NCBI GenBank assembly: GCA_016432425.1
Contig: CP066688.1
Span: forward strand, 343,398-407,397
Source of the DNA: Candidatus Daviesbacteria bacterium
GTDB lineage: Bacteria > Patescibacteriota > Microgenomatia > Daviesbacterales > UBA10151
Length of the DNA: 64,000 nt
Reading direction: 5' to 3'
In this document: positions 3,350 to 57,874 of the stretch, in pieces
Layout of the letters: each line of letters starts with the position of its first letter
Position numbering within the stretch: position 1 is the first letter of the stretch
The notes under the pieces: generated by a model
What the model saw: only the letters and a program-made list of their open reading frames with translations
Told to the model about the DNA's origin: nothing
The model's database searches: none
Position numbers and translations under genes: made by a program

Positions 3350-3377
3350 TAAAAATATTGTAACAGATATTTAGTCT

Positions 3378-5434
<2,057 letters not shown>

Positions 5435-24709: not shown

Positions 24710-25162
24710 TTAGATTTTAGCAGGTTTAATGACTAAATGACGTTCTTTGCCTTCTCCCACACTTTCAGTCTCTATCCCTTTTAAGTCTTGTAGGGCTAAA
24801 TGGACAATCCTTCGCTGCCAAGGGGACATGGGCTCCAATTCCATGGCTTCTCCATTGGAGATGACTTGATCCGCCCATCTCTGCGCCTGTTGAGCTAAAT
24901 TTTCCTCTTTTTGTTTCCTCCAACCCGCCACATCCAGAATCACTCTTTTGATTTTAGCGTCCGGGTTTTTCTTTAACATCATTAAACTAATTAAAAGTTG
25001 CAAACCCTCTAAGGACTCACCCTTAAAACCAATTAATCTGCCGGCATCTGGGGTAGCAATTTCCACCCGCAGCTGCTCATCATTTTCCTCAATATCATAA
25101 GACCCTTCCAACAAGAGTAACCCTAAAATATTATCTAAAATTTCCGATACTTGCTCTTGCAT
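24710..25162 (-). CDS. jag: Jag/KhpB-like RNA-binding protein (KH + R3H)
   Basis: R3H-like C-terminus (…QRRIVHLALQDLKGIETESVGEG…), conserved position downstream of yidC. Confidence 0.7.
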   Translation of the reverse strand: MQEQVSEILDNILGLLLLEGSYDIEENDEQLRVEIATPDAGRLIGFKGESLEGLQLLISLMMLKKNPDAKIKRVILDVAGWRKQKEENLAQQAQRWADQVISNGEAMELEPMSPWQRRIVHLALQDLKGIETESVGEGKERHLVIKPAKI

Positions 25163-25241
25163 ATTTTGTTTTGGACAATTCTGCCTAACTATTTCTATTA
25201 TTTAGTCCTGTTACCGAATTGCCCAGTCGTAATATAATCTT

Positions 25242-26069
25242 TTATTGTAGTTTCTTTTTAATGGAGGCTATAATGTCTTCCAGGCTGCCCCAGCCAGAAA
25301 CTTTATGCTGTTGGATAATACCGAGTATTGTATAGACATTTAAATAAATTGCAAGCCCGAGAGGAAATTGATAGGCAAAATAAGCCATCATCATTGGCAT
25401 CAAAAAAACCATTTGGCCCTGAATTGCCCCTAAACTTTCTTCCATGGTTTCTTTTTCTTTAGCTTCTTTAGGAGTATCTGTTTTATAAACCTTAACTGGT
25501 TTAGGTAAACTCATTTTAGCTTGGGCAAAAGCTAACAACGCTGTAAAGAGTGGAATAGCTATCAAATTAAAACCTTGGGAGCCGGGGGATACCCCTAAAT
25601 TAAGCCCAAAAAAACTTGGCTCAGGTAAATTATCTAAATGTAAAAATGGAAAATAAAACAGGGAATTAACCCAACCTAAATTAGCACTGGGACTGGGCAA
25701 AAGGTGCAAAATAGCCTGGTACAATCCCCAAAAAAGCGGCAGCTGGATCAAAGCCGGCAGACAACCGGCTGCCGGGTTAACTCCGTGCTGCTTATATAGT
25801 TGTGATTGAGCTAAAGCTAAGGATTGCCTGTCAGTATGTTTCTTCTTCAACGCATCCACTTGTGGTTTTAGCTCAGCAATAATTTTGGCGCTTCTTAGCT
25901 GGCCATGCATGGCCGGCCAAACCGACAATCTTACTAGTAGGGTAAATAAGGCAATGGCCCAACCAAAAGCACCAGGCAACCCCAGATTATGGAGCATTAA
26001 ATAAATTGCCACCAATAAATTAATTAAGGGTTGTAAAAAAAGGGCAATAAAAATATCACCAACATTCAT
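25242..26069 (-). CDS. yidC: membrane protein insertase YidC (short Gram-positive-type)
   Basis: GCLPALIQLPLFWGLYQAI core, 275 aa. Confidence 0.85.
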   Translation of the reverse strand: MNVGDIFIALFLQPLINLLVAIYLMLHNLGLPGAFGWAIALFTLLVRLSVWPAMHGQLRSAKIIAELKPQVDALKKKHTDRQSLALAQSQLYKQHGVNPAAGCLPALIQLPLFWGLYQAILHLLPSPSANLGWVNSLFYFPFLHLDNLPEPSFFGLNLGVSPGSQGFNLIAIPLFTALLAFAQAKMSLPKPVKVYKTDTPKEAKEKETMEESLGAIQGQMVFLMPMMMAYFAYQFPLGLAIYLNVYTILGIIQQHKVSGWGSLEDIIASIKKKLQ

Positions 26070-26270
26070 TTAGCGGCACCTCCACAATCTTTGCACTGTC
26101 AACCATAAACCTTTGGCTACTCCATATTTTTGGATCATCTGTTTAGAATACTGCGAACAACTAACCGGATACCTACAAGCTCCTCCGGGAGCAAAGTAGG
26201 AGAGTATTCCTTGGTCAAAAGATAAAAAGATTTGATAAAAAGAAATTAATTTAATGAATAATGTTTTCAT
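26070..26270 (-). CDS. yidD: membrane protein insertion efficiency factor YidD
   Basis: ISFYQIFLS…GGACRYPVSCSQY haemolytic-domain motif. Confidence 0.8.
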   Translation of the reverse strand: MKTLFIKLISFYQIFLSFDQGILSYFAPGGACRYPVSCSQYSKQMIQKYGVAKGLWLTVQRLWRCR

Positions 26271-26571
26271 ATTCTTTTAAAAGCTCCTCTGATTTTACCT
26301 TAAGTACCTCCGCGTTGGGAACTACCAAAATATTAATATTGGCCGGCAGTTTTACTAACATCTTTTCAAAAGCGGCTGAGATTACTCTTTTGGCTCTATT
26401 TCTCTCATGGGCTTTTTTAAAAACTTTAGTGGTCAGGGCAACCCCAATCTTAGGCTTATTATTATCTCCATATTTTAGATACACATTACCAAACTTATGA
26501 GATACTTTTCCCCCTGTTATTACCTCTTTGAATTGGAATTTCAAATTTAACCGGTTAAGTTTGGGTAGCAT
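26251..26571 (-). CDS. rnpA: ribonuclease P protein component
   Basis: KLNRLNLKFQFKEV… basic small protein, position between rpmH and yidD. Confidence 0.8.
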   Translation of the reverse strand: MLPKLNRLNLKFQFKEVITGGKVSHKFGNVYLKYGDNNKPKIGVALTTKVFKKAHERNRAKRVISAAFEKMLVKLPANINILVVPNAEVLKVKSEELLKEYENIIH

Positions 26572-26709
26572 TTAAACAGCCAGGCGAGTCCGACCCTTGG
26601 CCCGGCGGGCAGATAACACTGCCCGGCCATCTTTAGTGGCCATCCTGGCTCGAAATCCATGCTTTCTTGCTCTCTTAAGTTTTTTAGGCTGGTAAGTTCT
26701 TTTTGGCAT
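26572..26709 (-). CDS. rpmH: ribosomal protein bL34
   Basis: Manual translation of minus strand: [45 protein letters not shown]; below ORF-track size cutoff. Confidence 0.85.
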
Positions 26710-26805
26710 AACTTCAAGTTATTGTAACAAAAAAATAATTTCCTGTATAGTTAGAAATAATTGATATACTTATTTACAGTTTCGCCATCTTGTTTGATTA
26801 TTTCT

Positions 26806-26844
26806 TGTGGATAAAATTGTGGATAAGATTCATTTTGTGGATAA
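26806..26844. promoter_or_regulatory. three perfect DnaA boxes (TGTGGATAA = TTATCCACA complement) upstream of dnaA
   Basis: tgtggataa at 26806-26814, 26818-26826, 26836-26844; followed by 9-bp-stem palindrome tgatccgtc-aaa-gacggatca at 26846-26866. Confidence 0.7.
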
Positions 26845-26882
26845 CTGATCCGTCAAAGACGGATCATGTCAAAGGATCTCGT

Positions 26883-28205
26883 ATGGAAAAACTAAAGCTG
26901 TGGCAAAAAATTACGGTTGAAATAAAACACGAGCTGGACCAGGCTAATTTTAAAACCTGGTTTGGCAACTGTTTTTTAAAGGAAGTTGTGGATGATATTT
27001 TGGTTATAACCGCTCCCTCAGCCTTTATTAAAGAACAGGTCACTCTACGCTACTTAGACCTTTTAACTGAGGCCGCAGAAAAAATTCTGGGGAAAAAAGT
27101 TAAAATCGAGTTGGTAGTAGAGTCAAATAACAACCACAAAACTGTACCAGTAGAGGAAATTTTTGAAGCTCCGGCTCCCTCTCAAATCAATATACTAAAC
27201 CCCAAATATACCTTGGAAAATTTCGTGGTGGGGATGTCTAATAATGTAGCCTTTGCGGCTGCCCAGGCAGTGGTACAAAATCCCGGTATTTCCTACAATC
27301 CTTTATTTATTTATGGTGGAACCGGGGTGGGCAAAACCCATTTAATGTTAGGTATTGGCCATGCTATCTTAAAGAAAAACCCCGCCTTAAAAGTGATTTA
27401 TTGCTCTTCTGAACAGTTCACTAATGATTTTGTCAGTGCCATTCAAAACCATCGCATGGGGGACTTACGGGCCAAATACCGCTTAGCTCAACTTTTACTA
27501 ATTGACGATATCCAATTTTTCTCCGGCCGGGAAGGTACTCAGGAAGAATTTTTCCATACCTTTAATGAGCTGCAAAGTAAAAATTCCCAAATGATTATTA
27601 CCTCCGACCGATCTCCCCATGAGATTGCTAAACTGGAAGATCGTCTCCGCAGCCGTTTTGCCGGCGGTTTAATGGTGGATATCCAACCGCCGGATTTTGA
27701 TACCCGGGTGGCCATTTTAAAAGCTAAAGCCAATGAGTGGGGGACTACTCTACCAGAAGAAGCTTTAAAATTAATTGCCGCCTCTTCTGAGGTTAGCATC
27801 AGGGAGTTGGAAGGAAAACTCCTGCAAATTATCCAGGTTTTAAAAGCCCAAAATTTACCTACCACTACAGAAAATATTACCCTATTTTTAAATAAAACTC
27901 CCAAAAAACTACCTGCTTTATCTCACCAACAAGTACTAACTATTATTTGTCATTATTTTAATTTGGCCAACAAGGATTTAATTGGCCCCAAAAGACAAAA
28001 AGAGTTGGTTTTACCGCGTCATTTGGCCATGTATATTCTCTCCGAAGAGTTGGGGATGACTGTGGAGCGGATTGGTCAAATACTGGGTGGTAGAGACCAT
28101 ACCACTGTTATGCACGCCCGGGATAAGATTAAAAACTTGATCACTAAAGATAAGGAAATGCAACAAATTTTTATAGAGATTAAACAAGAGTTATCCACCA
28201 ATTAA
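26883..28205 (+). CDS. dnaA: chromosomal replication initiator DnaA
   Basis: AAA+ GGTGVGKTHL, DnaA box-binding C-terminus; start likely MEKLKLWQ (track ORF from 26790 spans the DnaA boxes). Confidence 0.95.
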   Translation: MEKLKLWQKITVEIKHELDQANFKTWFGNCFLKEVVDDILVITAPSAFIKEQVTLRYLDLLTEAAEKILGKKVKIELVVESNNNHKTVPVEEIFEAPAPSQINILNPKYTLENFVVGMSNNVAFAAAQAVVQNPGISYNPLFIYGGTGVGKTHLMLGIGHAILKKNPALKVIYCSSEQFTNDFVSAIQNHRMGDLRAKYRLAQLLLIDDIQFFSGREGTQEEFFHTFNELQSKNSQMIITSDRSPHEIAKLEDRLRSRFAGGLMVDIQPPDFDTRVAILKAKANEWGTTLPEEALKLIAASSEVSIRELEGKLLQIIQVLKAQNLPTTTENITLFLNKTPKKLPALSHQQVLTIICHYFNLANKDLIGPKRQKELVLPRHLAMYILSEELGMTVERIGQILGGRDHTTVMHARDKIKNLITKDKEMQQIFIEIKQELSTN

Positions 28206-28367
28206 CATAACTTTTCCACTAATTATCCACCAAAAATCCACCACTTATGAACACGAAAAAAGAAAGAAACTTGAACTTAAATTTTTTAACTTTACACATA
28301 TCCACCATATCTTCTAATATTACTACTAGTTTAAAATATATTGTATAATCTAATGACTTGTTGAAAA
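28206..28367. promoter_or_regulatory. AT-rich dnaA-dnaN spacer with DnaA-box-like 9-mers (candidate oriC/DUE)
   Basis: ttatccacc (28223-28231), aaatccacc, atatccacc variants plus AT-rich tract ttaaaatatattgtataatc. Confidence 0.4.
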
Positions 28368-28826
28368 ATGGCGGATTTAAATTGGGCTACCATCGGTATT
28401 ATAGGATTAGTTATTATTATTGCTTATCTTCTGGGAAGGTTGCAAAGCAGAAAATCAACCAATATCCCCACTGATGTCATTGACTTGTATAAAGGAGTAC
28501 AAGACTTACCAAGTAAAGTTTTACAGGTTATCCAAGGATCAATTAACCCCCAAAAAGGGAAAATGGCAGAGCTTTTAACTTATGCTGAGCTGCGTTATGA
28601 TTACGACCGGATTATTCCTTTAGGTTGGCCAATTGATTTTATTGGAATTAAAAATAATGAGCGGGTAGATTTTATTGAAGTAAAATCAGGACAGTTTTCC
28701 ACCTTGACAGATGAGGAAAAACATATTAAAAACCTAATAAGTAAAGGTCAAGTTTATTTTCGCTTGATTAAAGTAACAGAAGAAGAGGTGCATAAGTTTA
28801 TTAGTTCAACTTCTGCCCAAAGGTAA
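28368..28826 (+). CDS. membrane-anchored PD-(D/E)xK nuclease-like protein (YraN/Hjc-like)
   Basis: N-terminal TM (WATIGIIGLVIIIAYLLG), PIDFIGI…ERVDFIEVKSG matching P-D…E-x-K of YraN/Hjc endonucleases. Confidence 0.4.
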   Translation: MADLNWATIGIIGLVIIIAYLLGRLQSRKSTNIPTDVIDLYKGVQDLPSKVLQVIQGSINPQKGKMAELLTYAELRYDYDRIIPLGWPIDFIGIKNNERVDFIEVKSGQFSTLTDEEKHIKNLISKGQVYFRLIKVTEEEVHKFISSTSAQR

Positions 28827-28832
28827 TTTGAT

Positions 28833-29924
28833 ATGAAATTTTCCATTTTACAACAGGATTTATTGCCAGCCCTGCAAGCAGTCTCCCGCTGTGTTAATCC
28901 TCATGCCAGTTTACCGGTTTTAGCCAATATTTATTTATCTGCCCAAGGGCAAGAGATTAGGTTGGCGGCCACTAATTTAGAAATCGGTATTTTTAAAACT
29001 TTTAAAGCAGAAATTATTGAGGAAGGGGAAATTACTGTGCCGGCCAGGATGTTTTTAGATTTAATCAGCTCTTTACCGGGGACAAAATTAGATTTTGAAA
29101 CCAGCCAGGATATTTTATTATTAAAAAGCGGTAAATTTAAAGCTCAAATTAATGGTTTATCAGCCAGCGAGTTCCCCGTCATTCCTTTACCTCAAGATCA
29201 TCAAATTGATTTTCCATCAGAGGTTTTTAGGACATCACAGTCAATTTTGTTTGCGGCAGCCACAGATGAGGGACGCCCTACCTTAACCGGTATTTTAGTT
29301 TTTACTAAAGGAGATAATTTAAACTTTGTGGCCACTGACGGTTTTCGCTTGGCTTTTAAAGAGGTCAAGTTAACAAAAACGCAGGAGTTTAAATTTTTAG
29401 TACCCAGGCGAACTTTTGAAGAAGTACTGCGCTTATTGGATGAGGAAGAAGTAGACAATCTAAAGGTGACCAGTTCCCCAAACCAGGTAGTCTTTGCTTT
29501 TAGCAAAACCATTCTTTCCTCCCGGTTGATAGAGGGCTCTTTTCCGGCCTGGGAAAAAATTATTCCAACGGAAATAAAGACTCGTTTAATTATTAATAAA
29601 GAAGAGTTGTTGAAAGCTTTAAAAATAGCCTCAGTTTTTGCCAAAAATGAAGCCAATATTATTAATTTGGATTTAAAAAAAGAGGGGTTGATAGTCAAAT
29701 CCGCTTCCCGTCAACTTGGTTCTCAGGAAATGGAAGTAGAGGGACAAATAGAAGGGGAGGAGTTGTTGGTAGCTTTTAATGCTAAATTTTTACTTGATGC
29801 CGTCAGCAACTTACCTACCAGCCAGGCTATGTTGGAATTTTCCGGGGAACTAACTCCCTGTCTGGCCAAACCAGTAGGCATGGAGGGATTGCAGTACGTG
29901 GTCATGCCGATGGGGAGAAGTTAA
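28833..29924 (+). CDS. dnaN: DNA polymerase III beta sliding clamp
   Basis: 363 aa, three-domain beta-clamp pattern, immediately downstream of dnaA. Confidence 0.9.
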   Translation: MKFSILQQDLLPALQAVSRCVNPHASLPVLANIYLSAQGQEIRLAATNLEIGIFKTFKAEIIEEGEITVPARMFLDLISSLPGTKLDFETSQDILLLKSGKFKAQINGLSASEFPVIPLPQDHQIDFPSEVFRTSQSILFAAATDEGRPTLTGILVFTKGDNLNFVATDGFRLAFKEVKLTKTQEFKFLVPRRTFEEVLRLLDEEEVDNLKVTSSPNQVVFAFSKTILSSRLIEGSFPAWEKIIPTEIKTRLIINKEELLKALKIASVFAKNEANIINLDLKKEGLIVKSASRQLGSQEMEVEGQIEGEELLVAFNAKFLLDAVSNLPTSQAMLEFSGELTPCLAKPVGMEGLQYVVMPMGRS

Positions 29925-30380: not shown

Positions 30381-32408
30381 TTATTTTACTAAAAGTTCCC
30401 GTGCAAATTGTTGATGCAAAGGTTTGCTGCGCTGGTAAGGATTATTGGGAATAGCGGGTTCACAGGCGGCTCCAATTCCCAAGCTTTGCTCTGGAAACTC
30501 TAAGTTTAAAAAATAAGTTATCGTCTCTGCATAATCTTCGCTAAGGTTATTAATTCCTCCAATGCAACTGTTCCCGTTTTGGGAATAACTAGTCAAATAA
30601 CCTTCTTGACTAATTACCGATTGCAACTCGTTTTTCTTAGCAGTTTGTGGGTAGCAGTTTTCTATAATATGGGAAAGTTCATGGATAAAGACCACCTTAA
30701 ATAACCCTTCTGAGTAAGGTTGTTTAGTAGAAGAGCTAACTCCACTCATAGTTAAAGAATTACAAGAAATTTGTTCATTAAATCCGCGATCTAGTCTTCT
30801 AATATTAATAATATTATGGTTGGGATTAACTAAGTTTAAAAATTTAGTGTTAGAGATACCCCACAACTTCTCCCAGGCCCATTTTAAGTAGTTGTAACCA
30901 AAAGCAGTATCCATGTTAATGCCGAAAGCGTTTAAAATGTCGTCATGTAATTTTTGTTGATCAGTACTAGGCGGAGGTGCGTTAACAGAAACAGGCCGAC
31001 AGTTTTGCAGGCTGTTCCATAAATCATCCCCATAGTTATATGGTCCGGCGCATCTAGTAGTACCGCTGGCTGTTTTTTCAGATGTACCATATTCCAAGCA
31101 ACCATAATATCCTTCTGCGACTCTGTTTATGATAGTCTGATCACTGGTCCAGGAAGGATTCCACTCAACAGCACCTAATTTACTTAAGATCAAACCAGCT
31201 GAGAGGATAATACTACCTCTGGGGTCACAAAAATCTGCCTGAGTAAGCTGGTCGACGGTTTTATTTAAAAAACTGGCCCCTTTTTCTACCCCGCTAGCAG
31301 AATAAGCTGCTGCCAGCCCCCAAGGTGGTTGAATTTGCATAATACCTAAAGCCCCGGTCGGGTTAATAGGACACTTCTCAGCTCCCAGAGTTGGCAGATC
31401 AGCATCAGCGACTTTGGTAACAGAAGGAGTTTCCACCCTGGCAATGGCTGCCAAAAGGGTTGATGGTACTGAAGTTAATGTTTCAGCTTCTTGGAAGTAA
31501 CTTAAAAGTAGTGGACTTTGATAACTTTCAGCTTGAGGGTTTCGATCTCCCCGATAAAACTGGCAAGAGTTAATATTGCCAATTCCGCCAGCTTCAGCTT
31601 TCTGATAAGGGGGGATGAAACTGCCGCTTTCTAAGATGTTAAAAATAAGCGGTCCTATAAAAATGACTGCCACCACAATTAAAACTGCCACCACAATGGG
31701 CCAACCTACACTGGCTACGGCTGCTCCTCCGGCCATCACTGCTCCCCTGGCTGCCCCCTGGGTTAACATGCCTCCTGCCCGGCCCGCTCCCCCCAGTCCC
31801 TGGAATAATCCTGACCCCACCCCCCGGACCAGGGAACCAGCACCTCTAAGGGTATTTTCTCCCAGCCGGCGGGTTAAAATTTGCCCATGAGAGGAAAAAT
31901 CTTTAAAACTAGAGGGTATTTCCCATTTGGGTCGGGGAATATTAGGTGGGGAGGGGGTTTGAGGAGGTGGCCCTCCCTCAGTAGGTGTTTTACTAATTTC
32001 CTGCTGGACTCTTTTTAAAGCAGCTTCTTCGACTTTCCCCTCTAGTTTATTAAGCCATTTGTTTAAATTGTCCTCTTTTTGGTCAGGATCACTTAACTTA
32101 TCCTTTAAAGCTGTTTCCAACTCTGTGGCTTGTTGTTCGTTTAAGACTGGGGGGGCAGCCGGGTTAATTAATCTTCTTAAATTTAAATCTACTTTTTTGT
32201 TGGCATACAATTTTTCTACCAGCTCATTATCTTCTTGATAAACCCGATAAGCAGGCAATAAATGGCGGACCAGGCGCAAGATAGGTTTTTTAGCAATAAA
32301 ATATCCTCTAATGACCACAAAATGGCGGTCCGGTTTTTCTTTGAATTGGTCAATGGCCCCTCGAGGCTCAAAAAGCAATCTAAAAATTCTGGCGTCTTGT
32401 TGGGCCAT
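30381..32408 (-). CDS. T4SS-associated cell-wall hydrolase: TM protein with lytic transglycosylase (SLT) domain and C-terminal HExxH metallopeptidase-like domain
   Basis: TM AVMAGGAAVASVGWPIVVAVLIVVAVIFIG; SLT-like AIARVETPS…ALGIMQIQPPWG; FIHELSHIIEN; adjacent to VirB4. Confidence 0.5.
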   Translation of the reverse strand: MAQQDARIFRLLFEPRGAIDQFKEKPDRHFVVIRGYFIAKKPILRLVRHLLPAYRVYQEDNELVEKLYANKKVDLNLRRLINPAAPPVLNEQQATELETALKDKLSDPDQKEDNLNKWLNKLEGKVEEAALKRVQQEISKTPTEGGPPPQTPSPPNIPRPKWEIPSSFKDFSSHGQILTRRLGENTLRGAGSLVRGVGSGLFQGLGGAGRAGGMLTQGAARGAVMAGGAAVASVGWPIVVAVLIVVAVIFIGPLIFNILESGSFIPPYQKAEAGGIGNINSCQFYRGDRNPQAESYQSPLLLSYFQEAETLTSVPSTLLAAIARVETPSVTKVADADLPTLGAEKCPINPTGALGIMQIQPPWGLAAAYSASGVEKGASFLNKTVDQLTQADFCDPRGSIILSAGLILSKLGAVEWNPSWTSDQTIINRVAEGYYGCLEYGTSEKTASGTTRCAGPYNYGDDLWNSLQNCRPVSVNAPPPSTDQQKLHDDILNAFGINMDTAFGYNYLKWAWEKLWGISNTKFLNLVNPNHNIINIRRLDRGFNEQISCNSLTMSGVSSSTKQPYSEGLFKVVFIHELSHIIENCYPQTAKKNELQSVISQEGYLTSYSQNGNSCIGGINNLSEDYAETITYFLNLEFPEQSLGIGAACEPAIPNNPYQRSKPLHQQFARELLVK

Positions 32409-32430
32409 GGCAGTAATTTGATTCTACACT

Positions 32431-34146
32431 TTAACCTTGCTGGCGAGCAAGGATCTCGGCCGGGTTGGAGGTAATTAACTGGTGTTCCTCGGGGGAGGCC
32501 ACTACCCTCATGGCCACATGAGTATTGCCGGCAAAAAAGAGCCCCTGGCCCACTCCGGCAGCCAGCAGCAGACGCTGTTCACCTTCTGATAGATAAAAGA
32601 CTTGGGCCACTTTTTCTATTGAAGCCGGGGCTTGTTTTAGTAGTACCTGGATGGAGGAGTTGGAGATAATTTCTTTGCCCCGGTCAGTCCCCAAAAAATC
32701 TTCCACATCCTGGGTAATGGTGGTCAGCCCCAAATAATATTTGCGGGCCCTTTTGGCCATATCGACCAAGAAATCAGCGCTATCTTGGTTTTGCATTAAA
32801 TACCAGGCCTCATCCACCACCAAAAGGCGTTTTTTGAGTTTAGAGCGCACTTTGGTCCAGATGTACTCCAAAATAATATACATGGCCAAAGGACGCAGTT
32901 GGTCAGGCAGGTCACGCAGGGAAAAGACAGTAAAAGAGTTGCTGATATCAATATTGGAGGGTTGAGAAAAAATACCTGCCAAGGATCCTTTGACAAAGCG
33001 TTCCAGCCGGGCAGAGAGACTGGTGGCAATAGCATCTTCCATACCCATTAAAACTTTGTATAAATCTTCCATTAGAGGGGCGGGGCGGTTTTGGGTTTTG
33101 GGGTCATCAGTAATACCAAAACTGGCATAAGTTTGTTTTAAGCTTCTGTCTAAGATGGCTGCCTCTTGGGGGGAGAGTTGCCCTAAAACCAGTTTTAAAA
33201 AGCCAGTCAAAGACAAAATTTTTCGTCCCAACTCATTTTCTCCTGGATCGCCACTTAAAGATAGGTCAAAAGGGTTGATTTTAACTGCTGAATTAACTGA
33301 AAAGTTTAGATATTCTCCGCCAATAGCTTTGCACAAATTTAAATATTCCTGCTCCGGGTCAATCACCAAAATTTCCGTGCCAAACATTAAAGAACGCAAG
33401 GCTTCCAGCTTAACAAAATACGACTTCCCTGCTCCGGATTTGGCAAAAACTACCGAGTTGGCATTTTCCAAAGAAAAACGGTCGAATAAAATTAATGAAT
33501 CATTGTGTTCGTTAATCCCATACATAATGCCACTGTTGGAAGTTAACTCTGAGGAGGCAAAAGGAAACATGGAAGCCAGTGAAGTAGTGTCCATATTATG
33601 AGTAAAATTAAGCAAATCTTCCCCTAAAGGGAGGCTGGATTTAAAACCTGCCTCCATTTGCAGGGTGGTGGGTCTGGCCGTCATCGACAAAGAGGCCAGA
33701 GTAGATTCTACCAGTTTAGAGGTATTAGCTAACTCTTCTTTATTGTCCGTGGGCAGGGTGACATAAAGGGAATACTGGAAAAACCGCTCGGTGCCCCGCA
33801 CCAATTGATCTTGTAGGGCCCGGGCATCTTCTAAGGCCACTTCCACCGCCGGGTTAACTTGCTGCCCCCGTTCTAAGTCAGTTTGGATGGTGGCTTCCAT
33901 TTCAGCAATTTTCCTTTTTAGATCATTTAAGACTCCACTGGGCTGTTGTGGATAAATAAACATGGATAGATACAGCGAGTGGTCAAAAGAAATGACTGGT
34001 TCCAGCCAATTTAAGTCGACAAATCTGGGGTAAGCAGACACAAAATAGGTGCGATAAAAGGTTTGGTTAATCCGTAAATGGTTAAAATCCACCTCCATTT
34101 CCGCCGGGGCAATCAAATCAACTAAATTTAAATTATGGGGGTTCAT
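32431..34146 (-). CDS. type IV secretion ATPase VirB4/TrbE/PrgJ family (C-terminal ATPase portion)
   Basis: Walker A VVFAKSGAGKSYFVK, Walker B LLVVDEAWYLM, GLTTITQ; overall VirB4-like pattern. Confidence 0.75.
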   Translation of the reverse strand: MNPHNLNLVDLIAPAEMEVDFNHLRINQTFYRTYFVSAYPRFVDLNWLEPVISFDHSLYLSMFIYPQQPSGVLNDLKRKIAEMEATIQTDLERGQQVNPAVEVALEDARALQDQLVRGTERFFQYSLYVTLPTDNKEELANTSKLVESTLASLSMTARPTTLQMEAGFKSSLPLGEDLLNFTHNMDTTSLASMFPFASSELTSNSGIMYGINEHNDSLILFDRFSLENANSVVFAKSGAGKSYFVKLEALRSLMFGTEILVIDPEQEYLNLCKAIGGEYLNFSVNSAVKINPFDLSLSGDPGENELGRKILSLTGFLKLVLGQLSPQEAAILDRSLKQTYASFGITDDPKTQNRPAPLMEDLYKVLMGMEDAIATSLSARLERFVKGSLAGIFSQPSNIDISNSFTVFSLRDLPDQLRPLAMYIILEYIWTKVRSKLKKRLLVVDEAWYLMQNQDSADFLVDMAKRARKYYLGLTTITQDVEDFLGTDRGKEIISNSSIQVLLKQAPASIEKVAQVFYLSEGEQRLLLAAGVGQGLFFAGNTHVAMRVVASPEEHQLITSNPAEILARQQG

Positions 34147-34889
34147 ATATTATCTCCTAACTCTTCTACGACAAAAGGATGGGTTTTGGCCCGGGCCAAA
34201 TTGGGAAAAAAATTGCTGGTCGGAGTAATTGGAATGGGAGTTGGCTTTGGCTGGGTGGGAAAGGGAGTAGCAGCTACTTGGGGAGCTGCTAATTTAACAG
34301 GGGGAACCTGCACCGGAGTAACTATTTTAGTACTAATAGTTTGGTTATAGATATTAAAAAATAATTTGACCAGCTGGGCATTTTTCAACTGCTCTGCCTT
34401 GATGCCGGCCCGGGAGAGCTGGCGGATAATTTGATCGCGCCGGGGTAAAATAATGGCCTTAATTTTAGGCAACTGAGATAGGGAGTTAGGTTTTAAAGAC
34501 AGCCCCAGTTCCAGCGAGGAAACATTGATGGCAATATAGAAATTTTTATCCAACACTTCGTTTTCTTTGATGGTTTGTTGAATAAAATTGCGGTAGCGGG
34601 TCATCATAGCAGAAAGCAGAGGATTGTTTTGTAGTTTTTGGGCGCTATCCAATAAAGTTAAATATGAGCTAATATCTAACTTGATTGACTGGATAATAAT
34701 TTGGATGGGAAAAGATAAAGAGTTGAGCAGTTGGGCAAAGCTGTCGACAATGGCCAGTTGTTCTTTTTGGGAAAGCAGCCCAAAATTGACTGCCCCCACT
34801 TTTAATACTAAGGTGGCACCGCCGTCTTTTAAAAGTAGTAAGTCGCTGTTGATATCTTGAACTGTTAAGCTATTTTGAGTTTTGGTCAT
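34143..34889 (-). CDS. hypothetical protein, possibly detached N-terminal domain of VirB4 (ATGA overlap with downstream ATPase), Pro/Thr-rich tail
   Basis: 248 aa + 571 aa roughly equals typical VirB4 length; 4-nt overlap; no motif of its own. Confidence 0.3.
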   Translation of the reverse strand: MTKTQNSLTVQDINSDLLLLKDGGATLVLKVGAVNFGLLSQKEQLAIVDSFAQLLNSLSFPIQIIIQSIKLDISSYLTLLDSAQKLQNNPLLSAMMTRYRNFIQQTIKENEVLDKNFYIAINVSSLELGLSLKPNSLSQLPKIKAIILPRRDQIIRQLSRAGIKAEQLKNAQLVKLFFNIYNQTISTKIVTPVQVPPVKLAAPQVAATPFPTQPKPTPIPITPTSNFFPNLARAKTHPFVVEELGDNI

Positions 34890-35743
34890 ATTAATTTTTT
34901 AGCTGATACCGTTAAAGGTGATAAGGTCGTACCTTTTAAATTAATCTGAATTTTGTCAAAGGATAAACTCTCTTTTTCCAACTCAATCAGATAAGTACCA
35001 TTGGGTAGGGGGGTGGAACCGGAAAACTGGCCCAATTTGTTAGTTTTTAAGGCTCGAACAGGCAGCCCTGTTTTGTCGTAAATAATCACTACCACTCCTT
35101 CTAAATAATTGCCGGCTGCATCGGTAATAATGCCATTGATCACATTTGGTATGGTGGTCAGCACTAACTGGCCGGGTTTGATTTTACTAGCCGGGACCAC
35201 TTTAATAGGTTCATTTTTAACCATTGGTGGAAGATCCACTGGAGTTGGAGTAGGAGTGGGGGTAACTGGTGGAGTCGGGGTCACAACTGGCGCAGCAGTA
35301 GGAGTGGGCTGAGCAGGGATGATAGTAGCAGTTTGGGTGGGAGGGGTGATTTTGGCAATCACCGGTGGAGTAGCTGTTTCTAGGCTGGCCACCACTTGAG
35401 AAATAATGGACCCGCGCTGGCTAAAAAGGGCCGTTTGCTCCCAGGAATGGTCATTTTTGGACCATACCCACTGAGTAGGAGAATAAACTGCTTTTAAGAA
35501 AGCTTTCACCCAATAATCCAGCGGGCGGTCGGCAATGGGCATAAAAGCCAGCGCGACCCCCACCAGAGCAAAAAAGGTAATCAGCGGCCAGGCTAAAAAT
35601 CCCAGAATAGGAAGCAAAAAGACAAAGATTAAATAAGCTGTTCCCATTCCGAAAGATAAGTATAAAAACTGTTTTAAAGTCATGTCCCCCACTAATCTAA
35701 ATTCAAAAGCAGTGACGTTTTGTGGGATAGGATGGGCTTCCAT
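34886..35743 (-). CDS. VirB3/PrgI-like 2-TM protein fused to Pro/Thr linker and CnaB/carboxypeptidase-regulatory-like beta domain
   Basis: N-terminal YLSFGMGTAYLIFVFLLPILGFLAWPLITFFALVGVALAF; linker TPTPPVTPTPTPTPV; C-terminal GIITDAAGNYLEGVVVIIYDKTGLPV…GTYLIEL. Confidence 0.4.
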   Translation of the reverse strand: MEAHPIPQNVTAFEFRLVGDMTLKQFLYLSFGMGTAYLIFVFLLPILGFLAWPLITFFALVGVALAFMPIADRPLDYWVKAFLKAVYSPTQWVWSKNDHSWEQTALFSQRGSIISQVVASLETATPPVIAKITPPTQTATIIPAQPTPTAAPVVTPTPPVTPTPTPTPVDLPPMVKNEPIKVVPASKIKPGQLVLTTIPNVINGIITDAAGNYLEGVVVIIYDKTGLPVRALKTNKLGQFSGSTPLPNGTYLIELEKESLSFDKIQINLKGTTLSPLTVSAKKLI

Positions 35744-35919
35744 TTAAGAAGGATCATATAGTGTGAAAAAAATGTATGCAAGGGTTTAAAAGTGGATCAT
35801 TTTGGAGCAAACCTATATGAATTTCCTCCTTGCCAATACTAAATATTGAGTGTACATTAAAGGCGTGGTGTATCGTCCTGAGTACTTAAGGGAAATCGAA
35901 GTATCGAAGGGGAAGATAC

Positions 35920-36058
35920 AAAAAAGGGAATGGGGTGCCTCGCCTCGCTGAGCGGGCGAAGCGGGAAATCCCCAACTGTGCCGCAACGGTGATTCTGAAA
36001 AGATAAGTCCGGAGACCGACCACTCCGCCAGCTGGCGGATCAATCCCGAGCCAGGAAA
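35920..36058 (-). ncRNA. candidate structured GC-rich RNA with terminator-like 3' end (unclassified)
   Basis: GC-rich island in AT-rich DNA; perfect palindrome ccgccagctggcgg; nested hairpins cgcc-tcgctgagcg-ggcg enclosed by gggg…cccc followed on minus strand by UUUUUU (forward A-run 35920-35925). Confidence 0.3.
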
Positions 36059-36961
36059 ATGATTACTCAAGAACAAGAATGTATACAATTTATCGCTAAT
36101 TGGAGGAAAGCATCTCCCCAAAATCGTCCTCAAATAGTCCAAGAAATCGCTTCGTGGCATCGGGAAAGTAATCGCCAAATTGCCAAAGGAATAGATTTTT
36201 ATTGGTACGAGGTGGATGAGGAAGGTGATTTTGTCTCCCCAACCAATGGTGAAAAAATCACCGCCAGTATTAATCAAGAGTGCGGTTTGGGACAGATAGA
36301 AACTGGGGTAGTAAAGGAGTTGCAAAGACAAAAAAAATTAGGCGAGGAGCTTTTTATCTGGATTAGTCCGCCATACCCAAATACCTATGTTGATTTAAAA
36401 TTGACTATTACCAATCGGGTAGTTGATAAAGGGAGGGAGTGTTTTGCCAATAGGGCCATCCTTTTTGACTGTGATGAAACGCAAAGCTTGCAGTTGGCTC
36501 GAAAGGTTGCTGAAATCAGTAAAAACCGGCCACTTTTGTCCTCACTGGAGGAAATTAGACGAACTCCGCTAGTGTTAGATCGCAGTTTAGATTGGATAGA
36601 AGTTTTAACCAAAATAACTGGTGATAGTAAGTTGGGAGAAATTATTAACAGTGGAGAAGACCAACAAGCTAAAACTGAAGCAGTGAAGCAGGCTAGTCAG
36701 TTTTATGATGATTTATTGGGGGAGCCAACAATAGAATTGAAGGTAGAAAATATAAATTTTGCCCGCGATTATGGCTTGGGGGATAGTTTAAGCTCTTGTC
36801 CGGTGATTATGGGTGGTTTAACAGCCCCAGAAAACTCTTTTTCTTGCCCCAAATGTCACAGACCAATTCCTTATGGTAGAGGAATGACAGTTTGCCCTAA
36901 TAAAGACTCTTTTGGTAATAGATGTGGAGCTAAAAAAGAAGACTACGGAAATTGTAATTAA
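36059..36961 (+). CDS. hypothetical protein with C-terminal Cys-rich zinc-ribbon-like tail
   Basis: …SCPVIMGG…CPKCHRPIPYGRGMTVCPNKDSFGNRCGAKKEDYGNCN; no other motif. Confidence 0.35.
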   Translation: MITQEQECIQFIANWRKASPQNRPQIVQEIASWHRESNRQIAKGIDFYWYEVDEEGDFVSPTNGEKITASINQECGLGQIETGVVKELQRQKKLGEELFIWISPPYPNTYVDLKLTITNRVVDKGRECFANRAILFDCDETQSLQLARKVAEISKNRPLLSSLEEIRRTPLVLDRSLDWIEVLTKITGDSKLGEIINSGEDQQAKTEAVKQASQFYDDLLGEPTIELKVENINFARDYGLGDSLSSCPVIMGGLTAPENSFSCPKCHRPIPYGRGMTVCPNKDSFGNRCGAKKEDYGNCN

Positions 36962-36997
36962 TTTGATTTTAAATTTTTAGAGGTTTAAACTTAACTT

Positions 36998-38839
36998 ATG
37001 AGCGAAACTGATCCTTTGATAGAGCAGGAGTTGGGTTCAACAGTGATGGTAGCTGAGAAACCAGAGACACTTAAATCTCAACCTCTTAACCCTTATTCCA
37101 AGCAGCATATTTTTCCAGAAGAATATGCAGAAGAATATGCAAAAGATCATTTTTTGCCTCCTCCTGAGACAAAAGAGAATCATCAATTTGACTTTACAGA
37201 AATGGTGAGAAAGCTAATAACTCAAAAGACTTATCCTATTAGAGGAATTTCTCCTGACTTTAATCCCGCAAAAGCGAGCTTTTATAAAATTGAGCGTCAT
37301 GGTAGTGGCGGATTGGGAGCTAATCTGGTTAATGATCAAGGGGAGACAGTGGCGGTGATGCCTTTTTGGACTGAGGAATACAGTGACCAAGAAAAATACA
37401 TCATTAAACCAGATGGTCCTTATGATGTTCATTATGATCAAAGTGGCCGAGAAGTGATGCGGCTTCTGCGCCAAGAGGGAGGGGCAGGAGTAGTACCTGA
37501 TCCAGAGCCAGCAGATGTGGTGAGCTCAGATGCCGCGAGGGCCTGGTTAGAAAGACAGCTGAGATCTTATGAAGGGTTAGGGAGTGAAATAGATATGTCG
37601 ATAGTGAGCAGTTTGCTGTCTACTATTTCCGGAAGAATTCCTGATGCTTTGGGGGTGAAGAGGGAGTTATTAATCAGAACCCGGGCTCGTATTTTTTATC
37701 ATAATGCTGCTATTAGAGCCAGATTCAGATTAGGGGACTTAATGGAGGTATTTGGACAATTGCAGCTGCCAGAACACCAAGAGATTTTGGGTACCCCCGG
37801 CGTTAGGGAATCGATAGTAGCTTTAATAAACAATGATGGTGAGTTTTTTAGATTAGGTGGTGCAGCAGCTGATGCAGAGAGGACTAATATTAAAAACAAT
37901 CTTCAGGTTGGATTGGGTCTGGCTCCAGATAGAGCAATTTTAGCTTTGGAACTCGCCGAGAAATTTGCCCAAATGACTGGTGAAGCCAGTTACTATGATG
38001 GTATCAGGGATTTAACTGGTAATTGGCAACATTTTGAGGTCGGGGCAACCGGAGAAACAGACTATCAGGCTTATGCTGATTATTTAGCCGAGCATTGGGA
38101 CGATATTGACCAGGCTAATTCCTTACAAGGGCAAGGTTCAGCTAACATGCGAAGGGCCTTTTTTTATCCAGTTTTTTTACAAAAACCTGCTACTGATAAT
38201 AGGGGTCGGGCTGAATATTTAAGGAGATATGCTTATTTGTGGGTAAATTCAGCCGTACATTTTCGCAATCCTGCTTTCAATGCAGAAATGAATTTGTTAG
38301 ATTTCGCCGATCATATTGACAGTCAGTGGATAAAATGGATTGTTTGGGCCGGGAAAGTCTCTAAAGCTCATGGTAATGCCGGCCAATTAAATGAAAAAGG
38401 AGCAGAAAGTATTTTAAATGTACCCTTAATCGAGCCTAATAACTTAAAACAAGACACAAGTGAACAAACTATCAATGGAGTGATGGATAACTACAAAAAG
38501 GCTATTGCCGTTTTTGGCCACCTTAATTATCCTGAAGAAGTTCAGCGGTCCATGACCCATCTATTAAGAGGGGTGATGGAATATGTATCCGAAAGACATA
38601 TTAATCAAGCCCGGGCAGAAGGTTTTATTACTTGGTTGGGTATCAATCAAGATCAAGTTTTTAGTGTCTTAAGATGGGCTGCTAAAATTGGTGCCGTTAC
38701 TTATGTCCAAGCAGAAGGTTTGCGCCATCAACTAGATTTGACTTTATTTAGAGTGGCGGCTGAGGCTGCGGCGCCACATTTGGGCCAAGGTATCTGGGCT
38801 GGAATCAGGGGGTTTTGGGGCGCCATTACTGGTAAATAA
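36998..38839 (+). CDS. hypothetical soluble protein (613 aa)
   Basis: Long ORF, no TM, no recognised domain. Confidence 0.35.
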   Translation: MSETDPLIEQELGSTVMVAEKPETLKSQPLNPYSKQHIFPEEYAEEYAKDHFLPPPETKENHQFDFTEMVRKLITQKTYPIRGISPDFNPAKASFYKIERHGSGGLGANLVNDQGETVAVMPFWTEEYSDQEKYIIKPDGPYDVHYDQSGREVMRLLRQEGGAGVVPDPEPADVVSSDAARAWLERQLRSYEGLGSEIDMSIVSSLLSTISGRIPDALGVKRELLIRTRARIFYHNAAIRARFRLGDLMEVFGQLQLPEHQEILGTPGVRESIVALINNDGEFFRLGGAAADAERTNIKNNLQVGLGLAPDRAILALELAEKFAQMTGEASYYDGIRDLTGNWQHFEVGATGETDYQAYADYLAEHWDDIDQANSLQGQGSANMRRAFFYPVFLQKPATDNRGRAEYLRRYAYLWVNSAVHFRNPAFNAEMNLLDFADHIDSQWIKWIVWAGKVSKAHGNAGQLNEKGAESILNVPLIEPNNLKQDTSEQTINGVMDNYKKAIAVFGHLNYPEEVQRSMTHLLRGVMEYVSERHINQARAEGFITWLGINQDQVFSVLRWAAKIGAVTYVQAEGLRHQLDLTLFRVAAEAAAPHLGQGIWAGIRGFWGAITGK

Positions 38840-38845
38840 GTTAGC

Positions 38846-40522: not shown

Positions 40523-40569
40523 AATTTAAGATTAAATCAAAGTAGCTTATTTATCAACAGTGTGGCCAG

Positions 40570-41142
40570 TCACTGTTCAGTAACTGGTTTAACTCCCTCC
40601 GGGAAATTAGCCTGCTGGTAGGTTTCCTCATAATCTTTAACCTTTTCGACTCCTGGAAGAGTTGGCAAATCTGTGCCATAAACCCCAGTGGGTCCCCTTA
40701 AAAAGCTCTTTAGTTGTTCTATGGGGGTACCTTGTAACTTGACATCTGGAGGGGTTTGAGTTTGCTGAATAGTTTCTGATTGGACAAAAAACTTTTCTAT
40801 ATTAAGGGTTTGCCCGGCTTTACTTACTAATTCTGAGAAAAAATTACCTATTCCACTCAAAATCTGGCTTACTAAATCCTGATTAGGTAATTTATCTTTA
40901 ACTGCCTCCGGGGCCAATAAATTCTGGTTCAAATTATAAACAGCCTGTTCCTCAGAATTTATGGTAATAGCCTGAATAGGAGTAGCCAGTAGTAAGTAGC
41001 CAACAGTAAACAGTAAAAATATAATTGTTATCTTATTAACAATTAATTTAGGGGCAGACATAGTTTTAAAATTTACAGGTTCCGTTATAAACACTACTTT
41101 TAAGTGAAGCAATATTTCCCCCACCAACTCTGGCTGGTCCAC
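40570..41142 (-). CDS. small secreted/membrane protein with N-terminus paralogous to VirB6-like protein
   Basis: ITIIFLLFTVGYLLLATPIQAI vs IILFLLFTVYCLLLATNVQAEI; underlying DNA also heptamer-periodic (agtagcc agtagta agtagcc aacagta aacagta). Confidence 0.35.
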   Translation of the reverse strand: MDQPELVGEILLHLKVVFITEPVNFKTMSAPKLIVNKITIIFLLFTVGYLLLATPIQAITINSEEQAVYNLNQNLLAPEAVKDKLPNQDLVSQILSGIGNFFSELVSKAGQTLNIEKFFVQSETIQQTQTPPDVKLQGTPIEQLKSFLRGPTGVYGTDLPTLPGVEKVKDYEETYQQANFPEGVKPVTEQ

Positions 41143-42997: not shown

Positions 42998-43009
42998 TGT
43001 TTATTTAAA

Positions 43010-43342: not shown

Positions 43343-43379
43343 AATTTAAAATTATCACTCGGATAAGCCCAGGTCAAGC

Positions 43380-43805: not shown

Positions 43806-43813
43806 TTAGTTTG

Positions 43814-44789: not shown

Positions 44790-44791
44790 AA

Positions 44792-56677: not shown

Positions 56678-56678
56678 G

Positions 56679-56765: not shown

Positions 56766-56791
56766 CAAAGTGTTGTATAATAAACATAGCT

Positions 56792-57834: not shown

Positions 57835-57874
57835 GTTAGTTTTTAAACCTAATTTGCGGTACAATACTCAAGAT

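Follow-up and report, generated by a model that had tools for sequence, protein, structure and literature searches.

The region at positions 26572-28832 of the analysed window, a stretch of 64,000 nt, is very probably the replication origin (oriC) of a Candidatus Daviesbacteria-like (CPR/Patescibacteria) chromosome, and the gene for a predicted membrane-tethered nuclease, here called ORF152, lies in it between dnaA and dnaN. The whole account, a Bacillus-like oriC flanking dnaA together with a lineage-fixed nuclease gene ahead of dnaN, has in our estimate a probability of about 70%. The DNA signals of the origin are ordinary and Firmicutes-style, with DnaA boxes on both sides of dnaA, and if ORF152 has no replication role the region is a well-annotated but ordinary origin. 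If ORF152 does act in replication, bacteria whose genomes are extremely reduced would possess a new replisome-associated activity. The genes that frame the region are the following.

26572..26709, minus strand: rpmH (ribosomal protein L34; Pfam Ribosomal_L34, E = 1.9e-23), first gene of the divergent rpmH-rnpA-yidD-yidC-jag block
26883..28205, plus strand: dnaA, 440 aa (Pfam DnaA_N, Bac_DnaA, Bac_DnaA_C)
28368..28826, plus strand: ORF152, 152 aa, predicted membrane-tethered PD-(D/E)xK nuclease of the PF10107/COG4741 family (Pfam)
28833..29924, plus strand: dnaN (beta clamp; three Pfam DNA_pol3_beta domains), starting 6 nt past the ORF152 stop codon

All features described in a first-pass annotation of this DNA were found where it had placed them, and its reading of an rpmH-rnpA-yidD-yidC-jag / dnaA-dnaN arrangement agrees gene by gene with Pfam, which identified jag/KhpB, yidC, yidD, rnpA and rpmH on the minus strand. 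The coding strand of the Pfam-confirmed genes switches at this point, from minus in jag to rpmH (24710-26709) to plus in dnaA, ORF152 and dnaN. The cumulative GC skew, which had been suggested as a check on the origin, reached its minimum inside the region. Windows of 2 kb placed this minimum at 27-29 kb, and a fine-scale calculation gave 28310-28369; the signal is shallow over 28-33 kb of the 64-kb window. Perfect DnaA boxes occur four times in the window versus 0.78 times expected from shuffled sequence, and three of them fall inside 39 nt. The earlier assignment of an origin thus stands, with the refinement that the predicted unwinding site lies in the spacer between dnaA and ORF152 and not at the three perfect boxes. 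Our literature searches found no published description of a CPR/Patescibacteria replication origin, nor did they turn up work on patescibacterial RuvC or on genes located in the dnaA-dnaN interval.

The first-pass annotation had described the spacer (28206-28367) as holding degenerate boxes and an AT-rich tract, and both were recovered, the boxes at 28212-28306 and the tract with a GC content of 18-20%. The elements in and around the spacer are listed below.

28191..28242, plus strand: right DnaA-box cluster of four boxes in one orientation, the first three conserved in 62 distinct relatives
28191, plus strand: DnaA box TTATCCACC, shortly before the spacer, overlapping the 3' end of dnaA
28212, plus strand: DnaA box TTTTCCACT, in the spacer
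28223, plus strand: DnaA box TTATCCACC, in the spacer
28234, plus strand: DnaA box AAATCCACC, in the spacer
28249..28258, plus strand: conserved motif GAACACGAAA, in which the columns of ACACGAAA are at least 90% conserved among 62 relatives
28290..28306, plus strand: tandem overlapping DnaA boxes CTTTACACA/ATATCCACC, equivalent of boxes #6/#7 of the basal unwinding system
28311..28331, plus strand: seven DnaA-trios CTT CTA ATA TTA CTA CTA GTT (complement 3'-GAA GAT TAT AAT GAT GAT CAA-5')
28311..28367, no strand: AT-rich tract, predicted DNA unwinding element (18-20% GC in the 60-nt windows covering 28280-28369)
28342..28349, plus strand: extended -10 element TGTATAAT, conserved in 62 relatives, 18 nt before the ORF152 ATG

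In the Bacillus subtilis-type oriC, boxes #6/#7, DnaA-trios and an AT-rich region are located between dnaA and dnaN (Richardson 2016, Pelliciari 2021). The spacer was compared with the search criteria for such a basal unwinding system (PMC8287927), which are a DnaA box 0-16 bp away from the trios that departs from TTATCCACA at no more than 2 positions, at least 3 trios in a row whose middle base on the complementary strand is A (3'-NAN-5', 3'-GAT-5' preferred), a further DnaA box in tandem, with up to 4 mismatches, and an adjoining AT-rich unwinding region at the strand-composition switch next to dnaA. At the sequence level, every one of these elements is present here. The proximal box ATATCCACC (28298-28306) has 2 mismatches and is followed 4 nt further on by the first trio, three of the seven trios are GAT, the distal tandem box CTTTACACA (28290-28298) has 3 mismatches, and the AT-rich tract is accompanied by the skew minimum. 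The relatives share this arrangement, with TTATCCACATATCCAC as the consensus of the tandem boxes and ATATTA.TATTACTACTA as a trio block conserved in 62 of them. The dnaA-dnaN spacers of Bacillales show the same layout, TTATCCACATATCCACA + 4 nt + CTACTACTATTACTAC, and the orientation and spacing of the module are identical in the Bacillales loci L005, L013 and L029. By analogy with the experimentally defined system, DnaA bound to the tandem boxes would oligomerise onto the trio strand, and the AT-rich tract at ~28311-28367 would then open.

Like the Bacillus oriC, this locus has box clusters on both sides of dnaA, tandem overlapping proximal boxes, a 4-nt spacer, then successive CTA/TTA trios (box strand) and the AT-rich tract. 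It differs in that this genome has a degenerate distal tandem box where most relatives have a perfect one (consensus TTATCCACA), that the 4-nt spacer is ATAT and not GC-rich, that the left cluster comprises few boxes (3 in this genome, 1-2 in relatives), and that the nuclease gene, not dnaN, comes first after the unwinding element. A Bacillus-type unwinding module of tandem boxes, trios and AT-rich tract is thus conserved in Daviesbacteria, which makes the locus a ready substrate for in vitro tests. No further near-exact copy of the motif GAACACGAAA was found in the intergenic regions of the window.

The other box cluster lies upstream of dnaA. The start of dnaA is probably the ATG at 26883 (MEKLKLWQ...), since relatives align from residue 1 in tblastn, and the TTG at 26790, with which the mechanical ORF opens, is an unlikely start. 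Between rpmH and this ATG the following elements are found.

26761..26792, plus strand: promoter-like block TTGATATA...TTTCGCCATCTTG, kept upstream of dnaA in L081, L083, L085, L086 and L088
26806-26814, 26818-26826 and 26836-26844, minus strand: three perfect DnaA boxes, TGTGGATAA (minus-strand reading TTATCCACA), after the promoter-like block and ahead of the dnaA start
26846-26866, plus strand: palindrome tgatccgtc-aaa-gacggatca, 9+3+9 (21 bp), in the dnaA 5' leader, single copy in the window

The three boxes share one orientation and have start-to-start spacings of 12 and 18 nt, as had been noted before. Among 44 relatives, one perfect box is present at this position in 33, two in 5 and none in 6, so that the set of three is particular to this window. 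The promoter-like block is the probable, predicted dnaA promoter, and the left cluster most likely serves dnaA autoregulation, in which DnaA on these boxes would repress its own gene; the alternative is that it forms the left part of the origin. It is improbable that the chromosome opens here, at the three perfect boxes and the palindrome, and not in the dnaA-ORF152 spacer. The density of perfect boxes is the highest of the window, a tract of 18% GC lies just upstream (26720-26779), and origin parts are located upstream of dnaA in some bacteria, such as Helicobacter (PMC3479198), all of which would suit such an opening site. However, one box is usual in the relatives and none of them has the palindrome, no run of NTN trios follows the boxes on the box strand (AGAAATAATCAAACAAG, reverse complement of 26789-26805), the position of the boxes between promoter-like block and start codon is the classic geometry of autoregulation, and a complete and conserved module of boxes, trios and AT-rich tract sits on the other side of dnaA. 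The palindrome does follow directly after the boxes, as the first-pass annotation described, but its absence from all 44 relatives rules it out as a conserved operator or origin element, and it is specific to this genome. As RNA, it would fold into a hairpin of -15.3 kcal/mol (z = -2.15).

On the right side of dnaA, ORF152 follows the predicted unwinding element of the spacer. The extended -10 element TGTATAAT is the probable, predicted promoter of an ORF152-dnaN operon, and given its distance of 18 nt from the ATG the leader would be very short. The Shine-Dalgarno sequence of dnaN (AAGG) lies inside the 3' end of ORF152, no terminator-like site was found between the two genes, and ORF152 is probably co-transcribed and co-translated with dnaN. 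In metagenome loci of relatives, dnaN directly follows the ORF152 gene in 80 out of 80 cases, and dnaA lies upstream in 67, the other 13 contigs breaking off no more than 340 nt from the gene. The MAG contigs L081, L083, L086 and L088 have this gene order too, and it is kept in the distant L090, in which ORF152 is 52% and DnaA 37% identical. Two loci, L152 and L158, have extra genes between dnaA and ORF152, therefore a tight linkage of ORF152 to the unwinding element is not obligatory; in L158, TGTATAAT stays directly before the ORF152 gene. One further homologue (P0139, 45% identical) is located between giant ORFs, away from dnaA. The median dN was 0.17 for ORF152, 0.31 for dnaA and 0.40 for dnaN, with synonymous sites near saturation in all three, in loci that were chosen by similarity to ORF152, which inflates its apparent conservation, though L090 gives the same ranking. 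Judged from these loci and rates, ORF152 is a fixed housekeeping gene of the lineage, under stronger purifying selection than dnaA and dnaN, and not a mobile insertion. The earlier description of a nuclease gene inserted between dnaA and dnaN is therefore right about the position but not about an insertion event in this genome, the gene being fixed before dnaN across the lineage (80/80). That the gene is an unusual occupant of this junction was borne out by a background set of 80 dnaA loci of unrelated bacteria, without Daviesbacteria, obtained by scanning a genome collection with back-translated DnaA patterns; none of the 80 contained an ORF152 homologue, and the dnaA-dnaN gap was at most 600 nt in 62 of the 66 loci with dnaN downstream. 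A fixed position of a PF10107 gene between oriC and dnaN was not found described in the literature.

ORF152 matches PF10107 with 36 bits (gathering threshold 23.8, E = 7.4e-9), and all listed homologues carry this domain. No other Pfam family was found at E <= 0.01, VRR-NUC, Hjc and YraN included, there was no match in PHROGs or NCBIfam, and a sequence-profile search of the PDB yielded spurious coiled-coil matches and no nuclease. The catalytic motif reads E68...D90...E104-x-K106 (I89-D90, E104-V105-K106), and when 30 and 60 members of the family were aligned, E68, D90 and K106 proved invariant, with E or D at position 104. An AlphaFold2 (AF2) model (pLDDT 77) predicts a transmembrane helix at residues ~6-27, a helical stalk at 35-56 and a catalytic core at 61-136 with the order alpha-beta-beta-beta-alpha-beta. 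The earlier reading of the 152-aa ORF as a membrane-anchored PD-(D/E)xK protein is thus sustained, as ORF152 has an N-terminal hydrophobic helix and the catalytic residues hold in the two alignments, and ORF152 is likely to be an active nuclease. As to its characterisation as YraN/Hjc-like, the PD-(D/E)xK fold is shared with Hjc (PF01870) and YraN-UPF0102 (PF02021), but by sequence profile ORF152 belongs to neither, its family being PF10107/COG4741. The protein resembles this family in length (~150-200 aa), N-terminal transmembrane helix, minimal core of 4 strands and 2 helices, E-(V/I)D-E(V/I)K motif and predicted cytosolic orientation, whereas the ~10-residue loop (RFPTDK...) that joins strands 2 and 3 in most other members of PF10107, the viral ones included, is missing from the Daviesbacteria subfamily. 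Identity to VRR-NUC (PDB 4qbn, 4qbo) and archaeal Hjc (1gef, 1ob8) structures is 12-16%, and these are soluble proteins without membrane or stalk helix, unlike ORF152. No member of PF10107 has been experimentally characterised (PMC3045609).

The most hydrophobic window of ORF152 begins at residue 4 (mean Kyte-Doolittle value 2.37 over 19 residues). Lysine and arginine residues number 0.15 before the helix versus 3.15 in the 15 residues after it, a bias present in 58 of 60 sequences, and the domain is predicted to face the cytoplasm, with a single N-terminal helix in the membrane. CPR bacteria depend on nucleotide salvage, and a tethered domain with this predicted orientation could break down imported DNA just inside the membrane and so provide nucleotides to a CPR bacterium without de novo synthesis of its own. 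Just past dnaN there is a gene cluster resembling type IV secretion, and Kosinski et al., whose 2005 prediction for the family agrees with a cytosolic topology, proposed the production of (oligo)nucleotides for the host (PMC1189080). Nonetheless, we consider such a salvage function improbable: the only tie to an uptake machinery is proximity, on the opposite strand, the family is absent from the sampled dnaA loci of Saccharibacteria, Doudnabacteria, Magasanikbacteria and Berkelbacteria, and its phage homologues are located in replication modules.

These distant viral homologues were found in 21 IMG/VR viral contigs and in two phage-like contigs of ~200 kb, while tblastn against deposited phages gave no match to ORF152. 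In the uncultivated viral contigs the homologue is part of a conserved module consisting of a primase-helicase, a ~330-aa protein, the ORF152 homologue and a Cas4-like nuclease; the ~330-aa protein upstream of the homologue (alignment A6) had no Pfam, PHROG or PDB match. A family predicted since 2005 hereby gains a clean, testable context, between the predicted unwinding site and dnaN, more strongly constrained than initiator and clamp, and also in phage replication modules. Our best guess of a link with replication is based on the synteny with dnaN and with phage primase-helicases, i.e. guilt by association. ORF152 is the first gene after the predicted unwinding site, and we tentatively propose for it the role of a structure-specific nuclease, of Hjc/VRR-NUC type, that would be expressed together with the replisome and whose substrates at the membrane would be branched intermediates of replication or recombination. 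More speculative is the possibility that PF10107 constitutes an unrecognised class of replication-associated membrane-tethered nucleases, found in the oriC-ORF152-dnaN operon and in the primase-helicase module of large uncultivated phages, whose task would be the processing of forks, flaps or primers, or a link between replicating DNA and the membrane. A replication-associated role, if true, would explain why ORF152 evolves more slowly than DnaA and DnaN. A search by eye found no convincing beta-clamp-binding motif in ORF152.

The Hjc-type catalytic motif and the strong conservation, which suits a core DNA-repair role, would also fit the Holliday-junction resolvase of this lineage, which would stand in for RuvC or RecU and, close to the membrane or septum, resolve intermediates of recombination or chromosome dimers. 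This seems rather unlikely, as viral genomes with the homologue have a separate resolvase (Phage_endo_I in L093, phrog_9019 in L098) and the family is rare at the dnaA locus in other CPR lineages. Moreover, we know of no characterised resolvase with a membrane tether.

The occurrence of homologues in viral contigs would also suit a nuclease of mobile or phage origin with a function in defence or superinfection exclusion, which settled in a permissive dnaA-dnaN spacer and cuts foreign DNA as it enters, at the membrane's inner face. Toxin-antitoxin cassettes do occur in origin-flanking spacers of relatives. Defence genes are, however, usually patchy and fast-evolving, whereas ORF152 has the same position in all 80 relatives, also in the lineage with a DnaA of only 37% identity, and a dN below that of dnaA and dnaN. 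Its neighbours are dnaA and dnaN, without a partner ATPase or methylase, and PADLOC gave noise-level matches, the best of which (PDC-M10B, E = 0.007, 14.7 bits) is not a significant defence match. PHROGs and the deposited-phage collection contained no match, and the viral homologue belongs to a replication module and is not found among accessory genes. Guarding against foreign DNA was speculated on in the 2005 paper (PMC1189080), yet with this evidence we regard it as an unlikely function of ORF152. One further homologue (P0139, 45% identical) is located between giant ORFs, away from dnaA.

Both Pfam and the strand assignments agree with the canonical rpmH-rnpA-yidD-yidC-jag / dnaA-dnaN arrangement proposed in the first-pass annotation. 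Cumulative GC skew dropped from the left end of the window, reached its minimum at 27-29 kb, within the origin region as the annotation had anticipated, and rose thereafter; at 60-nt resolution, the local minimum was at 28310-28369, where the GC content was 18-20%. A mechanical ORF call started dnaA at a TTG at 26790, which would read through the upstream DnaA boxes. This start was rejected, since the alignment with relatives begins at the first residue encoded from the ATG at 26883, and dnaA therefore spans 26883-28205, with the boxes and palindrome in its leader. The elements of the region are as follows.

Elements of the origin region
24710-26709, minus strand: jag/KhpB, yidC, yidD, rnpA and rpmH
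26806, 26818 and 26836: perfect DnaA boxes TGTGGATAA (TTATCCACA on the minus strand), within 39 nt
26846-26866: 9+3+9 palindrome tgatccgtc-aaa-gacggatca, single copy in the window
26883-28205, plus strand: dnaA
28191: DnaA box TTATCCACC, right-hand cluster
28212: DnaA box TTTTCCACT, right-hand cluster
28223: DnaA box TTATCCACC, right-hand cluster
28234: DnaA box AAATCCACC, right-hand cluster
28290-28306: overlapping box pair CTTTACACA/ATATCCACC, opening the unwinding module; a 4-nt spacer follows
28311-28331: trios CTT CTA ATA TTA CTA CTA GTT; an AT-rich tract follows
28342-28349: TGTATAAT
28368-28826, plus strand: ORF152, followed by dnaN on the same strand

The degenerate boxes and AT-rich tract that had been noted between dnaA and dnaN were recovered (boxes at 28191-28306), and the four right-hand boxes share one orientation. 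Read on the complementary strand, 28311-28331 is a run of seven DnaA-trios (3'-GAA GAT TAT AAT GAT GAT CAA-5'), and the preferred GAT accounts for three of them. Under published criteria (PMC8287927), a basal unwinding system is recognised by three or more NAN trios no further than 16 bp from a DnaA box with up to 2 mismatches, by a second, optional box with up to 4, and by an adjoining AT-rich region; all three components are present in the dnaA-ORF152 spacer. The layout is like that of Bacillales dnaA-dnaN spacers, TTATCCACATATCCACA followed by 4 nt and CTACTACTATTACTAC. In an alignment of 62 distinct relatives' spacers, the conserved columns corresponded to boxes one to three, to the tandem pair, whose consensus is TTATCCACATATCCAC, and to ATATTA.TATTACTACTA and TGTATAAT; the element order is kept at the distant locus L090, with CCCC as spacer and CTA CTA CTA TTG CTT CTA TTA as trios. 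The origin is a further example of an already known type and, by analogy with the well-studied Bacillus system, DnaA would open the duplex at the trios, at about 28311-28367. The same spacer contains a motif, GAACACGAAA (28249-28258, consensus CAACACGAAA), whose conservation across the 62 relatives is 90% or more; it does not resemble a DnaA box and has only two one-mismatch copies elsewhere in the window (27221 and 51020).

Upstream of dnaA, the three perfect boxes (26806-26844) and the palindrome directly after them are present as first described. The window contains four perfect boxes, versus 0.78 expected from shuffles, three of them in these 39 nt; the fourth (33947-33955, minus strand) is 5 kb away from the origin, within a VirB4/TraG-like gene. 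That this left cluster is the real opening site appears improbable, since the window sequence lacks the trio run that an unwinding module would need after the boxes on the box strand. A promoter-like block, TTGAT(A/C)TA...TATATTG, is common to the relatives. Of 44, 33 have a single perfect box after it, 5 have a pair and 6 lack one, and a second box, inverted or degenerate, often stands immediately before the start codon; three perfect boxes occur in the window only. Promoter block, box and start codon in this order form the usual geometry of dnaA autoregulation, in which the left boxes presumably act. The palindrome was rejected as an origin element, as neither it nor its arms occur in any of the 44 upstream regions, and was treated as a genome-specific leader hairpin. 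As RNA it forms a stable hairpin (-15.3 kcal/mol, z = -2.15) that ends 16 nt upstream of the dnaA start codon and leaves the AAAGGA ribosome-binding site uncovered.

ORF152 had been described as a membrane-anchored PD-(D/E)xK nuclease. The helix and catalytic residues stood, and the family proved to be PF10107 (36 bits, cut-off 23.8), the sole Pfam match at E <= 0.01; searches of NCBIfam and PHROG found nothing. There were 969 homologues at E <= 1e-3; the best 120 of these are 72-91% identical, and the taxon-named ones among them are Candidatus Daviesbacteria, except one 'Patescibacteria group bacterium' and one 'bacterium', which identifies the window as part of a Daviesbacteria-like CPR chromosome. 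In alignments of 30 and 60 members, E68, D90 and K106 never vary, and either E or D occupies position 104, which gives the E...D...(E/D)xK pattern also found in Hjc-type enzymes. The AlphaFold model (pLDDT 77) shows a helix (6-27), a stalk helix (35-56) and an alpha-beta-beta-beta-alpha-beta core (61-136), which compared with known structures as follows.

Structural comparison scores of ORF152
Stand-alone VRR-NUC 4qbn: 8.7
FAN1: 8.1-8.5
tRNA-splicing endonuclease subunits: ~7-7.8
Hjc: 6.7-6.8
YraN-like 3fov: 6.5
RecU: 5.7

A Foldseek search returned the same families, none significantly. The N-terminal stretch that precedes the hydrophobic helix has a mean length of 3.8 residues and contains 0.15 K/R; the 15 residues after it contain 3.15 K/R, a bias present in 58 of 60 sequences, so that the positive-inside rule predicts a cytoplasmic nuclease domain. 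Family, fold, catalytic residues and topology of COG4741 were all predicted in 2005 (PMC1189080), with computational confirmation in 2010 and 2012. In 2010, no PF10107 member had been experimentally characterised (PMC3045609), and we found no later report of one in the literature. By sequence, ORF152 is a new, well-contextualised member of this known family of predicted nucleases.

The annotation considered the gene an unusual occupant that interrupts the dnaA-dnaN junction. The first part is correct: in 80 dnaA loci of other bacteria (about twenty from other CPR lineages), dnaN was downstream in 66, with a gap of at most 600 nt in 62, and none contained an ORF152 homologue. The second part did not hold when relatives were compared. 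The order dnaA-ORF152-dnaN recurs in every contig examined, namely MAG and assembly contigs (L081-L088), the window's own duplicate (L089) and 80 metagenome loci. In the latter, dnaN follows ORF152 in all 80, mostly 0-30 nt away, and dnaA precedes it in 67; on the other 13 contigs, under 340 nt of sequence is left ahead of ORF152. L090 (DnaA 37%, ORF152 52% identical) has the same order, then dciA. ORF152 is a fixed resident, not an insertion. The three genes of 46 complete loci were each compared with the window.

Conservation relative to the window
dnaA: mean identity 60.6%, median dN 0.31
ORF152: mean identity 76.3%, median dN 0.17
dnaN: mean identity 53.8%, median dN 0.40

ORF152 had the highest identity in all 46 loci, a comparison biased by their selection for similarity to ORF152, although the ranking in L090 is the same. 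In each of the three genes, synonymous differences approach saturation (pS 0.70-0.77), thus constraint acts on the protein. Two loci retain ORF152 although the linkage is broken: in L152, a toxin-antitoxin-like pair and a prepilin-type pilin gene separate the unwinding module from ORF152 (2433-3943), and in L158 the module is separated from dnaA by a 283-aa gene (2927-3778). More generally, relatives' intergenic regions around the origin gather extra genes (L086, L088, L152, L158), such as a HepT/MNT pair between rpmH and dnaA (L086, 588-1405) and a DUF433/DUF5615 pair upstream of dnaA (L088, 927-1434). In L090 (GCA_964372495.1), dciA encodes a helicase-loader-type protein (5604-5894) directly after dnaN, giving dnaA-nuclease-dnaN-dciA.

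An additional loop separates strands 2 and 3 in the homologues at 30-43% identity, which sit on phage-like contigs of 48-205 kb (L092, L093 and 21 IMG/VR contigs), with no dnaA or dnaN nearby. Most of these contigs (L092-L108; e.g. L095 33-5063, L098 90-8031) share one gene order.

Gene order on phage-like contigs
1: T7 gp4-like primase-helicase (Toprim + DnaB_C)
2: ~330-aa protein
3: ORF152 homologue (PF10107)
4: ~237-aa Cas4-like or PDDEXK_1 protein with a Cys...CxxCxxxxxC pattern
Further on: endolysin, HNH nuclease and a separate junction resolvase

Alignment A6, of the ~330-aa family, has an invariant W and a conserved GxSxGxS...W.RF motif, and the family matched nothing in Pfam, PHROG or PDB; 5 of 13 ~237-aa proteins match PDDEXK_1 (best E = 6.8e-5). 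Taken with the cellular synteny, this gene order places the PF10107 family next to replication genes in cells and viruses. The association is not universal, since P0139, a 45% identical homologue, lies between giant ORFs. L101 (IMGVR_UViG_2811995112_000007) is 61,922 nt long, as is the longest contig of the homologue P0301, labelled 'Candidatus Pacearchaeota archaeon' at NCBI, a label that may reflect a virus binned into a MAG. Only the fixed oriC-nuclease-dnaN placement and its echo in phage replication modules go beyond routine annotation.

As to a cellular role, we infer, with a probability of about 0.3, that ORF152 would be a structure-specific nuclease, expressed with the replisome and cutting branched DNA at the membrane. 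Substitution for RuvC/RecU is rather unlikely, as viruses with a homologue carry a separate resolvase (phrog_9019 in L098, Phage_endo_I in L093) and seem not to need the homologue for that function. A defence function of the nuclease is less likely still, and it is doubtful that the protein is a nucleotide salvage enzyme. Concerning expression with the replisome, TGTATAAT is a putative promoter that probably transcribes ORF152-dnaN, because the leader is very short and no terminator-like site was found between ORF152 and dnaN. With only 18 nt from TGTATAAT to the ATG and no visible Shine-Dalgarno sequence (28342-28370), the ORF152 mRNA would have almost no leader; several relatives have a start codon still closer to the -10 element.

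Just past dnaN lies a type IV secretion-like gene set (30381-45913, minus strand).

Members of the gene set
32431-34146, minus strand: VirB4/TraG-like ATPase
34886-35743, minus strand: PrgI-family protein
41066-42997, minus strand: M23 peptidase
44792-45913, minus strand: T4SS pilin domain protein

In L081 and L083, dnaN is followed by a TraG-like ATPase, a Big_5-domain protein and a TraC-like protein, and in L090 an M23 peptidase is found after dnaN. A cobalamin riboswitch (RF00174 in Rfam, 40.6 bits) at 35879-36038 on the plus strand precedes two ORFs without Pfam match (36059-36961 and 36998-38839), possibly a CPR system for taking up or binding B12. The window also contains a tmRNA (50816-51181), whose tag peptide is GNNNVRYAYA, and six clustered tRNA genes (56590-60141), four for Ser and two for Arg.
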